From IMG/VR virus record IMGVR_UViG_3300025018_000001: a stretch of 64,000 nt of DNA; one strand, given 5' to 3'. Below, piece after piece: positions 4,939 to 14,281 of the stretch (position 1 is its first letter; each line of letters opens with the position of its first letter). A program made the position numbers and the translations under genes. The notes beneath the pieces were generated by a model. That model did no database searches, was not told the origin of the DNA, and saw only the letters and a program-made list of their open reading frames with translations. This DNA comes from a virus (taxonomy: Duplodnaviria; Caudoviricetes).

Positions 4939-5097
4939 TTAATCAGTCTTTCTACTTGGATGTTTCTTTTTTCTACAATAAATAGTTTTATCTTTAACTA
5001 CTTTTGTTTGTGTATTATACTCTAAAAATTCTTTACGTGCAAGCTTTTTTATTAACTTTGTTCTTCTTTTTACTAAGTCATCCTTTTTGTTTGACAC
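4939..5097 (-). CDS. Small basic protein with ArfA-like motif (alternative ribosome-rescue factor-like), 52 aa
   Basis: Not in track. GTG start: VSNKKDDLVKRRTKLIKKLARKEFLEYNTQTKVVKDKTIYCRKKKHPSRKTD*; KVVKxKxxYxRKxKH resembles the ArfA core. Confidence 0.5.
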   Translation of the reverse strand: MSNKKDDLVKRRTKLIKKLARKEFLEYNTQTKVVKDKTIYCRKKKHPSRKTD

Positions 5098-5103
5098 GGC
5101 ATA

Positions 5104-5268
5104 CTACCCCCAAAATGTTCCAGGTATAAGCTCACAGTCAAAGTAATCCTTCAAGATATAAATATCTCTTTCAGAAAGGCCAGCATCTTTAATTTCATTC
5201 ACTAATAAGCTTATACGCTTTTTTATTATTTTTAATTTTTCAATTTCTTTTTTATCTTGTTTATCCAC
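5104..5268 (-). CDS. Hypothetical protein, 54 aa, ends in TAG in frame with the ArfA-like ORF
   Basis: Not in track. AGGAG RBS, GTG start, VDKQDKKEIEKLK...LIPGTFWG*. Confidence 0.6.
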   Translation of the reverse strand: MDKQDKKEIEKLKIIKKRISLLVNEIKDAGLSERDIYILKDYFDCELIPGTFWG

Positions 5269-5304
5269 ATATACTCCTATAATTGAAATTAAAAAACTAC
5301 ACTA

Positions 5305-7235: not shown

Positions 7236-7631
7236 TTATAAAAGTTTTAAATCCCCTGTTATTTTATCAATATCTTCACTAACCCAAGGACCTATACCGA
7301 CACAAGTGTATGTGGGTACACCACCAAATTCTGTTCGACCAGCGTCTCTTATTAAAGCACAAGGAATACAAGCTTCTTTAGACCTAATGTATATATCCAT
7401 GAGAGCCTCTTCACTATCCACACTTACAACAATTTTGGTAAAGGAGCTATCCAACCAATGTTTTATAGGATCTGGTGCAAAAATAGGGTCTACATCATCA
7501 TCTCTTATTGCTTGATTTATGTCAAGCTCAGCAAGTATTACAGCTAAACTTGCATGGGCGCCTTGCGCAATCATCTTACCTTTACGCATATTTAAATCTT
7601 TACGCATAACAATAACTTGTTTTGTTTCCAT
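7236..7631 (-). CDS. pth2: Peptidyl-tRNA hydrolase, Pth2 (archaeal/eukaryotic) family
   Basis: KQVIVMRKDL.M.KGKMIAQGAHA, KIVV, IRDAGRTE, TCVGIGP: full Pth2 signature. Confidence 0.93.
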   Translation of the reverse strand: METKQVIVMRKDLNMRKGKMIAQGAHASLAVILAELDINQAIRDDDVDPIFAPDPIKHWLDSSFTKIVVSVDSEEALMDIYIRSKEACIPCALIRDAGRTEFGGVPTYTCVGIGPWVSEDIDKITGDLKLL

Positions 7632-7852
7632 TAAAAAATCTCCATACGTATTGTAGCATCAGAAACAAATGCTTCTGAGTATTTGTGACCCATTGTTCTT
7701 GTATAAACCATATCTATATCTATAGAATGTTCTGCACAACGTATGCCTGACTTCTCTTTAAAGTCTTCTAAGATTCTAGATACTTCTTTTGCTATCTCAC
7801 TTTCTGCTTCTTTTTTCATTTTAGAAAGTTCTTTTACTGTTATGTCGTACAT
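7631..7852 (-). CDS. Hypothetical protein (start revised to MYDITV so it does not overlap the tRNA)
   Basis: AAGGAG RBS immediately after the tRNA 3' end. Confidence 0.7.
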   Translation of the reverse strand: MYDITVKELSKMKKEAESEIAKEVSRILEDFKEKSGIRCAEHSIDIDMVYTRTMGHKYSEAFVSDATIRMEIF

Positions 7853-7864
7853 ATTAACTCCTTT

Positions 7865-7936
7865 TGCCTCCAGAGGGAATCGAACCCCCGTCACACTATT
7901 TTAGAGGTAGTTGTTCCACCATTGAACTATGAAGGC
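7865..7936 (-). tRNA. Amber suppressor tRNA, anticodon CUA
   Basis: GCCTTCA/TGGAGGC acceptor, GTTC/GAAC D-stem, ACTAC-CT CTA AA-ATAGT anticodon arm (C.A mismatch at 31-39), GGGGG-TTCGATT-CCCTC T-arm, A73. Confidence 0.88.
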
Positions 7937-7948
7937 TTCTAATTTAAA

Positions 7949-7982
7949 TAGAGCCGTACATAAATAGTTAGGTACGGCTCTA
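7949..7982 (-). terminator. 11-bp hairpin between the Pth2-like gene and the suppressor tRNA (weak terminator or processing signal)
   Basis: TAGAGCCGTAC-N12-GTACGGCTCTA followed by TTTAAATT. Confidence 0.55.
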
Positions 7983-7986
7983 AGTT

Positions 7987-8289
7987 TTATAATAAAGACA
8001 TGTTAGCAAAATAATCGTTACTGCCTAGGCTTGCTATAGCAGTAAGTTGATTGTTAAAATCAGGCTCTTTAAAACTTGTATAATGGATCTTACCATGTTT
8101 AAGAAGCGCTGTCAAGGATTTTAATTCATCCTCATCATTTACTTTTAAGTACACTAAAGTACCATTAGACCAATGAGTATTATTTTTTAACAAATACTCG
8201 GCTAAGGCGTGGCCAGCTTGGACCGCTTGCTGGGATTTAGATAAATCTTTTCTTGTAACTACATATAACTTATCCTGCATTTGCAACAA
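7987..8289 (-). CDS. Pth2-like protein (PTRHD1-type divergent peptidyl-tRNA hydrolase)
   Basis: LYVVTRKDL...QAVQAGHA, LVYLKV.DEDEL, F.EPD...TAIA. Confidence 0.8.
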   Translation of the reverse strand: MLQMQDKLYVVTRKDLSKSQQAVQAGHALAEYLLKNNTHWSNGTLVYLKVNDEDELKSLTALLKHGKIHYTSFKEPDFNNQLTAIASLGSNDYFANMSLL

Positions 8290-8590
8290 GCTCCTGCTTT
8301 TTAAGATTTTCCCAATGAAGGATGATAGGTTTCATAATCCTATCTACGTAGTACGTGTCAGGCTTGTTATCGTCTGCACACTTACGTTCTATTTCCTCCA
8401 TAGATCTACCTCTTATCAAACAGTAAGCTATGTGGTGGTGCCTATAATCATATCGTAGATCATCTAATCCAGCTACTACACCGTAAAGAGAACCCTTACG
8501 TTTAGATTTTTTATTTCTAATCTCTACCGCTGCTTCTTTTAATGCTACTTTTAGTTCTTTTAATGTTTCTATTTTAGTATTAATTTTCAT
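8270..8590 (-). CDS. Hypothetical basic protein (YRHHHIAYCLIRGR motif), coupled to the Pth2-like gene
   Basis: ORF track, GGAG RBS, overlaps next start. Confidence 0.75.
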   Translation of the reverse strand: MKINTKIETLKELKVALKEAAVEIRNKKSKRKGSLYGVVAGLDDLRYDYRHHHIAYCLIRGRSMEEIERKCADDNKPDTYYVDRIMKPIILHWENLKKQELVANAG

Positions 8591-8657
8591 AATTTTTTCT
8601 CCGTATTTATTTATTAGTATAGTAATAATAGTAGTAACAATTATAGTACCAATAAAT

Positions 8658-8699
8658 TTACGGTGACCTAACTACCTAGACGAATCCTGATTTTGTCAT
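8658..8699 (-). promoter_or_regulatory. Leader uORF MTKSGFV-(TAG)-VVRSP-(TAA) with internal amber codon
   Basis: AAAGGAGG-GACT-ATG ACA AAA TCA GGA TTC GTC TAG GTA GTT AGG TCA CCG TAA, followed by AU-rich hairpin 8609-8657. Confidence 0.65.
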
Positions 8700-14206: not shown

Positions 14207-14281
14207 CTAGACATAGCAGTACATTCCCTCAATTTTTGAGGAGCCATAAAAGAAAATCTTTTCATAGTTTGTACTAATCAT
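14207..14281 (-). promoter_or_regulatory. Attenuator leader peptide MISTNYEKIFFYGSSKIEGMYCYV-(TAG)
   Basis: Manually translated; AGGT RBS 8 nt upstream; the stop region CTAGTTG can pair with CGACTAG of the terminator 5' arm. Confidence 0.75.

Follow-up and report, generated by a model that had tools for sequence, protein, structure and literature searches.

We describe a jumbo phage that keeps the standard genetic code and encodes a real, conserved amber suppressor tRNA, referred to here as tRNA(CUA), whose decoding of UAG is argued from sequence comparison. It is probable in our view that tRNA(CUA) is a functional suppressor, to which the host lysyl-tRNA synthetase (LysRS) most likely attaches lysine, and that its conserved substrates are UAG codons in its own operon. 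The role best supported by comparison with related phages would be the gating of this Pth2 operon through a short leader reading frame that contains a UAG codon, and not incipient recoding. The original prediction had interpreted the tRNA as a sign of either conditional read-through or an early stage of recoding; the first interpretation now acquires targets, namely the conserved UAG leader and an in-frame UAG in the Pth2-like gene of a relative (G026), and the second finds no support in the use of TAG throughout the genome segment analyzed.

Genome features and use of TAG

The window, which is the whole stretch of 64,000 nucleotides under study, is the reverse complement of positions 187526–251525 of a 264,359-bp phage contig (NODE_15 of ENA ERZ17986938), and the sequencing runs that contain its DNA are labelled as aquifer and cold-spring metagenomes. 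Genes identified include those for PolA, an NrdJ-type reductase, DnaK, DnaJ, RecA, DnaB, a primase, thymidylate synthase and a ClpB-like ATPase. The tail module is located outside the window; its tape-measure gene is called with a length of 7581 aa, and its fibre-like genes have 2269, 1829 and 1062 aa. The tape-measure gene (PF10145) is found at L102 1–5645 (contig NODE_15, about 147–153 kb), and is followed by hub-like and fibre-like genes of 667, 615, 854, 869, 1829, 2269 and 1062 aa with no in-frame stops. The source is a jumbo phage without a close relative among isolates; neither the region nor tRNA(CUA) has a near or a distant DNA match in the GenBank phage collection, an exact-pattern search of IMG/VR with tRNA(CUA) gave no match, and a search with the 923-aa protein gave no relatives.

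For analysis of the genetic code, the window and overlapping loci were merged with zero conflicts into 106,969 contiguous bp, corresponding to about 40% of the ~264-kb genome and covering early, replication and tail genes; the head and lysis genes fall in the remaining ~157 kb. Under code 11 this segment is 96.9% coding, and its 122 genes end in TAA (87), TAG (21) or TGA (14), such that TAG accounts for 17% of the stops across the 107 kb, is more frequent than TGA, and is not depleted; within the window alone it terminates 13–15 of 95 genes. There are no in-frame TAG codons among 34,589 codons, and TAG occurs 2,359 times out of frame in the same genes. In the early, replication and tail genes TAG thus functions as a normal stop without depletion, which bears out the original prediction that it still serves as a stop and that long conserved genes are free of it. 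The comparison of coding densities proposed at that time gives no rise within the 107 kb, with coverage of 96.4% under code 11 and 96.2% when TAG is read as sense, where code 15 is recognized by a rise of >5%. Reading frames that continue past TAG stops extend for a median of 4 codons, the same as past TAA or TGA.

The relatives that carry tRNA(CUA) present a similar picture. At the ends of orthologous genes TAG alternates with TAA and TGA, as seen for the SNase, radical-SAM, methyltransferase and ClpB-like genes, among others. The IMG/VR relative G026 (161 kb, 61% complete), with ~70% nucleotide identity to this phage, is 96% coding under code 11 and reaches 47 kb past the region shared with it, and gains nothing when TAG is read as sense (96.2% against 95.8% coverage). 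The same standard code and the same tRNA are thus kept across relatives at ~70% nucleotide identity, and the arrangement looks stable and not transitional; together with the undepleted state of TAG and its exchange with TAA and TGA, this speaks against an early stage of recoding.

A scan for TAG codons with coding signal on both flanks gave the Pth2-like gene discussed below as the only clear case; such codon-score scans cannot separate antisense frames, and only sense-strand hits were read. Neither an RF2 nor an aminoacyl-tRNA synthetase gene was seen among the gene calls of the 107 kb, and the motif GTCTAGG is not enriched.

Three further candidates for read-through were rejected. Pairs of neighbours in the same frame separated by a TAG (77 and 127 aa, 201 and 91 aa) have a Shine-Dalgarno sequence (SD) and ATG of their own for the second gene, and are no commoner than pairs separated by TAA or TGA. 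An ArfA-like reading frame behind a TAG (4939–5268, minus strand) has no ArfA Pfam match, and the corresponding junction in the relative L161 is TAA TAA; the locus consists of two ~54-aa reading frames in one frame with a single TAG between them, the downstream one being basic (it includes Y-C-R-K-K-K-H) and weakly matching the small stand-alone PHROGs 2701 and 18092. A short 'MHNV-TAG' resembling an upstream reading frame at about 44656 is a terminator hairpin. We also note that a 66-aa gene ends with a tandem TAG TAG (5299–5304, minus strand) that is kept in L161 and is TAA in L162 and L159.

The tRNA(CUA) gene and its conservation

ARAGORN reports ten tRNA genes in the window, every one on the minus strand, including the following:

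7865–7936, minus strand: tRNA(CUA), amber suppressor, 72 nt, anticodon CTA

This gene matches the Rfam tRNA model RF00005 with 60 bits (gathering threshold 29; E 1.8e-10) over model positions 1–71 of 71. The acceptor stem has 7 bp including one G.U pair, with G1-C72 and the discriminator A73; the D stem has 4 bp and a 7-nt loop, AAUGGUG, without A20. The anticodon loop, C-U-CUA-A-A, has U33 and a purine at position 37, and a C31.A39 mismatch lies at the bottom of the anticodon stem. The variable loop is of 5 nt, the T arm is GGGGG/CCCTC, and CCA is not encoded. ARAGORN and the Rfam score thus confirm the cloverleaf first read from the letters, with its CT-CTA-AA loop, G1-C72, A73 and short variable loop. 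The thermodynamic fold of the gene on its own is unremarkable (z -1.7), and it is the covariance model, together with covariation in relatives, that identifies the gene as a tRNA.

All 72 letters are identical in eight independent assemblies (ENA, JGI and Logan), which rules out the sequencing error in the anticodon that had been raised as a possible objection. These assemblies are clonal, being 99.98–100% identical to the window, and hence hold no evolutionary information; strain polymorphism offered no usable TAG/sense alleles for the same reason.

Relatives were found by searching with the neighbouring Pth2 protein and form a group at 69–74% identity. Every contig of the group that reaches the spot has tRNA(CUA) at the same place (L160, L161, L162/163 and L164), as do the metagenome loci L176 and L177, which are near-copies of L160 and L164, and G026. 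The shared setting is a Pth2-like gene, a hairpin, tRNA(CUA), a 73- or 76-aa gene and Pth2. An alignment of five distinct syntenic tRNA(CUA) sequences has 81% column identity, with 94.3% of the cloverleaf cells paired and 11 of the 21 stem pairs changed on both sides; none of 500 shuffles is as good, and sliding the partners cuts pairing to 42–59%. CUA, A37, A38, A73 and G1-C72 are invariant across this alignment and all four stems co-vary. The loop C-U-CUA-A-A is constant in six of the seven lineage members, with C33 in L162. Decoding may be weak in some members: three of five have A.C in place of a 31-39 pair, the anticodon stem of L160 contains two U.U mismatches, and L162 deviates by the C33 just mentioned. 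The suppressor genes of L162 (4686–4760; C33 and a C4.A69 mismatch) and L176 (1912–1984; a U3.U70 mismatch and a TTCCATT T loop) are blemished, possibly through decay or assembly error.

The operon around tRNA(CUA)

The genes and other features immediately surrounding tRNA(CUA) are as follows:

7236–7631, minus strand: canonical Pth2 peptidyl-tRNA hydrolase, 131 aa (PF01981, TIGR00283)
7631–7852, minus strand: 73-aa conserved protein directly after tRNA(CUA), 73–85% identical in relatives
7950–7981, minus strand: 10-bp hairpin between the Pth2-like gene and tRNA(CUA), read from the sequence
7987–8280, minus strand: Pth2-like gene, 97 aa from its ATG (PF01981, phrog_1866)
8270–8590, minus strand: 106-aa helical protein, first gene behind the putative leader switch, orthologues 42–92% identical

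The 131-aa Pth2 is a strong match to PF01981 (115.7 bits, E 1.7e-33) and to NCBIfam TIGR00283 (109 bits), and the Pth2-like gene scores 24.7 bits against PF01981 (cut-off 23; E 2.9e-5). The Pth2-like gene ends 51 nt upstream of tRNA(CUA) and is co-oriented with it, likewise in all lineage members. Its first 11 nt lie within the 3′ end of the 106-aa gene, an overlap suggestive of translational coupling, and the stop of the 73-aa gene overlaps the start of Pth2. Searches of Pfam, PHROG and NCBIfam gave no match for either the 106-aa or the 73-aa protein; their AF2 models have pLDDT values of 56 and 60, respectively, and an ESM Atlas search gave no hit. A hairpin of other sequence occupies the place of the 7950–7981 hairpin in the relatives, and could be a processing site or a weak terminator; a terminator scan made no call there.

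The Pth2-like gene of this phage has no in-frame TAG. That of G026 has one (position 131031), inside the conserved motif NGTLVYL-X-V, with both the reading frame and the similarity continuing to the normal stop. The codon at this site is AAA or AAG (Lys) in four other distinct sequences and in L176 and L177, and AGT in L162. The G026 TAG is a single metagenomic observation, which could also reflect a recent nonsense mutation or an assembly error.

A conserved UAG leader and a predicted hairpin

Two further features are located at the head of the operon, upstream of the 106-aa gene:

8658–8699, minus strand: leader mini-ORF, M-T-K-S-G-F-V-TAG-V-V-R-S-P-TAA, with a strong, conserved SD (AAGGAGG)
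8597–8666, minus strand: predicted SD-hiding hairpin; the final two sense codons of the leader and its TAA form the 5′ base, and the SD GGAG (8602–8599) forms the 3′ base

The leader starts with ATG at 8699 and has seven codons before the TAG (8678–8676) and five between the TAG and the TAA (8660–8658). The SD, the ATG, and the in-frame TAG and TAA are present in all seven members (this phage, L161, L160, L176, L164, L162 and G026), and the TAG and TAA are separated by 18 nt in six of them and by 21 nt in L162, always in frame. The encoded peptides are as follows, with x at the TAG:

This phage: M-T-K-S-G-F-V-x-V-V-R-S-P (the same in L161, except for V-A-R-S-P at its end)
L160 and L176: M-V-T-H-S-G-F-V-x-V-A-R-S-P
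L164: M-N-T-N-Y-S-G-F-V-x-V-A-R-S-P
L162: M-H-R-H-W-x-V-N-R-G-P-P
G026: M-E-N-S-G-F-T-x-N-N-R-S-P

Among the four alignable sequences, changes in the leader frame are synonymous in seven cases and non-synonymous in one, with a ratio of one to seven in every other frame (P about 0.001). Past the TAG alone, five of six changes are synonymous (P about 0.01), and the Arg codon varies between AGG, AGA and CGA. The changes are few, and one of them (CCG to CCT) is also matched by a change in its RNA partner, so that the coding signal is good but thin; conservation past the TAG is assessed from about 8 substitutions, and that of the Pro codon is partly explained also by pairing with the SD. From this pattern of substitution the codons past the leader TAG look translated.

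Minimum free energy folds of the segment between the TAG and the next ATG predict in all seven members that the SD of the 106-aa gene (GGAG) is paired with the last sense codons of the leader. These partner codons are UCA-CCN, or CCU-CCA in L162, and are located directly 5′ of the leader TAA. The helix runs on through the TAA into an arm that is wholly different between members, and the pair next to the SD is G-C, U-A or A-U depending on the member. The hairpin is AU-rich, with predicted folds at z -1.1 to -2.6, and was folded as single sequences; the AU-rich arms do not align (MAFFT). Its base begins 13 nt past the T of the leader TAG.

Other small reading frames were seen near these leaders and elsewhere in the genomes. 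Upstream of the UAG leader three relatives, but not this phage, have a small reading frame with a strong SD encoding a Gly/Lys-rich peptide that ends in Cys (G026 129605–129670, L160 about 4977–5045, and L164 about 446–517; the G026 peptide is M-A-K-K-G-G-G-K-G-G-K-G-G...G-C). A second leader reading frame (14207–14281, minus strand) precedes an array of eight tRNAs in this phage, with a counterpart in G026 just upstream of 124276. In both phages it ends with an aromatic residue, Val or Ile, and TAG (...M-Y-C-Y-V-TAG here and ...M-G-W-F-I-TAG in G026), and an intrinsic terminator follows it, directly before the first tRNA of the array. Lys, Ser, Glu, Gly and Met abound in the second leader of G026 and are the amino acids of the five tRNAs in its own array; the next in-frame TAA of this leader abuts the terminator stem.

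The amino acid carried by tRNA(CUA)

The original prediction left open which amino acid would be inserted, and comparison with other tRNAs and with identity rules now narrows the choice. An acceptor-stem search of 185,579 species genomes, a method that biases the result towards Arg, found the same acceptor stem mostly in tRNA-Arg genes of Patescibacteria and other metagenome-assembled genomes (MAGs), with D and T arms shared too. A near-identical acceptor stem, D arm and T arm belong to tRNA-Arg at loci L082–L097, from Patescibacteria MAGs and two short MAG contigs labelled 'Gammaproteobacteria'. Among phages the same acceptor stem is used by tRNA-Thr and tRNA-Lys. Overall, the tRNA(CUA) bodies are similar to tRNAs for Arg, Lys, Met and Thr, and furthest from those for Gln, Trp, Tyr, Ser and Leu.

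By rules of the E. coli type, Gln identity depends on G73, a weak 1-72 pair, G2-C71 and G3-C70, and Arg identity on A20 with C35 (PMC9976931). tRNA(CUA) has A73, G1-C72, C2-G71 and C3-G70 at the first set of positions; at the second it has no A20 and a U at position 35, and its relatives have U20. U35 and A73 are Lys determinants, and Lys tends to be the residue inserted by amber suppressors that have U35 (PMC9976931). Both residues are invariant in the lineage, and the anticodon is one change away from CUU. This U35/A73 signature, and the alignment of the G026 TAG with Lys codons, make Lys the best guess for the residue inserted by tRNA(CUA), which would presumably be charged by the LysRS of the host.

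A model for UAG-dependent expression of the operon

We propose that the last codons of the leader and its UAA act as the anti-SD arm of a hairpin that would bury the SD of the next gene. Where RF1 terminates the leader at UAG, the ribosome would halt about 13 nt before the hairpin and the SD would stay closed. Where tRNA(CUA) reads the UAG, the ribosome would reach the Pro-UAA end, melt the hairpin and expose the SD, such that the 106-aa gene, and also the overlapping Pth2-like gene, could be translated. Given the known mRNA channel of the ribosome, a ribosome with the TAG in its A site should leave the hairpin closed, and one that has advanced to the TAA should open it. Termination is known to be slow at Pro-stop ends, and at Pro-UAA this may hold the SD open. 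We infer the direction of this regulation, from read-through to expression, and a part in it for the Pth2-like enzyme. The module would report, and probably feed back on, the balance of amber suppression against RF1; its possible uses are feedback on suppression, RF1 sensing and timing.

Suppressor tRNAs and Pth2-like genes in other phages

A search of 25 other large IMG/VR phages that bear Pth2, made with a restrictive pattern, found tRNA(CUA) in G002 (323 kb), G005 (239 kb) and G008/G017 (181 kb, complete), and L165 has one too. The bodies of these tRNAs are unrelated, and the genomes look standard-code. In G002 and G005 a Pth2-like homologue is located 0.5–0.7 kb upstream of tRNA(CUA) and is co-oriented with it, and this Pth2-like gene has TAG at codon 3, starting with M-K-TAG in G002 and M-L-TAG in G005. 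G008 and L165 have no Pth2-like hit within 4 kb of tRNA(CUA). Of the five independent lineages sampled, three thus show the association. More generally, Pth2 homologues that are 42–59% identical (IMG/VR loci L001–L062) are common in large environmental phages and are often embedded in arrays of tRNA genes. A scan of 60 loci gave no CUA tRNA within 3 kb of Pth2, yet several of those genomes have one elsewhere, beside a separate Pth2-like gene.

From these observations we tentatively suggest that tRNA(CUA), a UAG-containing leader or gene start, and a Pth2-like hydrolase may constitute a self-contained and horizontally spreading 'amber gate', a feedback module that would both measure and set how much UAG is read through relative to RF1 termination in the infected cell. 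It would occur in many large phages of standard code and in some bacteria, and would use Lys and not Gln in the lineage described here. CUA tRNAs in standard-code phages are of a kind already known, being on record for relatives of recoded phages (bioRxiv 10.1101/2021.08.26.457843), for RsoM2USA (PMC8504454) and in jumbo-phage surveys. We found no paper that connects them with UAG-gated genes of the Pth2 type or with a leader containing UAG.

Alternative explanations

tRNA(CUA) could instead be a general suppressor without a target, its low-level read-through of all UAG stops acting in host sabotage, in nonsense buffering of giant genes or as a step towards code 15, in which case the leader UAG would be incidental. 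Suppressor tRNAs in standard-code relatives of recoded phages have been proposed as recoding precursors (bioRxiv 10.1101/2021.08.26.457843), for crAss-like phages sabotage of the host has been put forward (PMC11025619), and RsoM2USA, a jumbo phage in culture that uses the standard code, carries a CUA tRNA for which a target is not known (PMC8504454). Giant genes are present here (7581, 2269 and 1829 aa), and the short extensions past TAG, with their median of 4 codons, would make global read-through cheap. We nonetheless regard an untargeted suppressor as unlikely, as TAG is undepleted (17% of stops and above TGA), unlike the precursor state of Borges et al., and this state persists stably in relatives with about 70% identity. 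An untargeted role also leaves the conservation of the leader UAG and its in-frame continuation in seven of seven members, with a coding signature, as a coincidence, and does not predict that TAG-gated Pth2-like genes recur beside unrelated tRNA(CUA) genes.

A different possibility is that the phage is partly recoded, tRNA(CUA) being a code-switch tRNA for late genes (head and lysis) that carry in-frame TAG elsewhere in the genome. This is modelled on recoded phages that keep their replication genes standard and recode structural and lysis genes (bioRxiv 10.1101/2021.08.26.457843), and the 107 kb read of the ~264-kb genome places the head and lysis genes in the other ~157 kb. The tail module is, however, a late module, and its partial tape measure, hub and fibre genes (about 40 kb) have zero in-frame TAG; G026, read over 161 kb, gains nothing from TAG as sense, and the Pth2-like gene alone emerged clearly from the scan for TAG with coding signal on both flanks, such that a code switch seems improbable. 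It is less probable still that tRNA(CUA) does not decode at all, being a decaying pseudo-tRNA or a tRNA-shaped anticodon-nuclease decoy, primer or processing signal. Mismatches in the anticodon stem (C31.A39 here and two U.U in L160) and C33 in L162 might be read in this way, but CUA, A37 and A38 are invariant while all four stems co-vary, the Rfam score is that of a full-length canonical tRNA, and the conserved in-frame UAGs adjoining tRNA(CUA) make sense only if UAG is decoded. We thus favour a functional suppressor directed at the UAGs of its own operon.

Relationship to known systems and significance

The proposed module has parallels in bacterial regulation. E. coli prfB, encoding RF2, is autoregulated through an early in-frame UGA and +1 frameshifting. 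In both cases an early stop codon would report on release factor versus alternative decoding and set the expression of a termination-related gene; here, however, the alternative is suppression by a dedicated tRNA, the outcome is unmasking of the SD of a downstream cistron, and the products are of the Pth2 family and not a release factor. The leader-peptide attenuators ermC/ermB and secM-secA use the position of a ribosome to open a hairpin that hides the next SD. The arrangement described here likewise has a short upstream reading frame, ending in Pro-stop, that would control an SD-hiding hairpin, but the signal would be stop-codon decoding by a suppressor tRNA and not antibiotic- or secretion-dependent stalling, with any stall at Pro-UAA being a presumed one.

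Among phages, the closest comparison is with code-15 suppressors of crAss-like, Lak and 'gemstone' clades (bioRxiv 10.1101/2021.08.26.457843, PMC9523058), which are also phage-encoded tRNA(CUA) genes in low-GC large phages of presumably standard-code hosts, and the two also share the idea that read-through could time when certain genes are expressed. In contrast to those phages, there is no recoding here, as TAG ends 17% of genes and occurs inside none of them; the tRNA body and discriminator are not Gln-like and the one informative site aligns with Lys; and the putative targets are a leader reading frame and a Pth2-like gene of the same operon, not structural or lysis genes. RsoM2USA (PMC8504454) is another jumbo phage of standard code whose many tRNAs include just one tRNA(CUA), a situation seen also in G002, G005, G008 and L165. 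For orphan CUA tRNAs of that type no target has been proposed in the published cases, whereas here a conserved operon, apparently gated by UAG, surrounds the tRNA.

CUA tRNAs of standard-code phages have long been listed without a target, and are usually explained as recoding steps or host sabotage. In the phage described here and in its relatives, expression of an operon encoding enzymes of the tRNA-hydrolase type appears to require UAG read-through. If this is correct, it would represent a new translational switch, in which a leader peptide, a hairpin that hides an SD and a dedicated tRNA together sense a stop codon, and would provide both a natural regulatory 'private codon' and a Lys-type natural amber suppressor, which are of interest for genetic-code engineering. 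Should the 'amber gate' extend to other phages as we tentatively suggest, it would give a function to the orphan suppressor tRNAs of standard-code phages.
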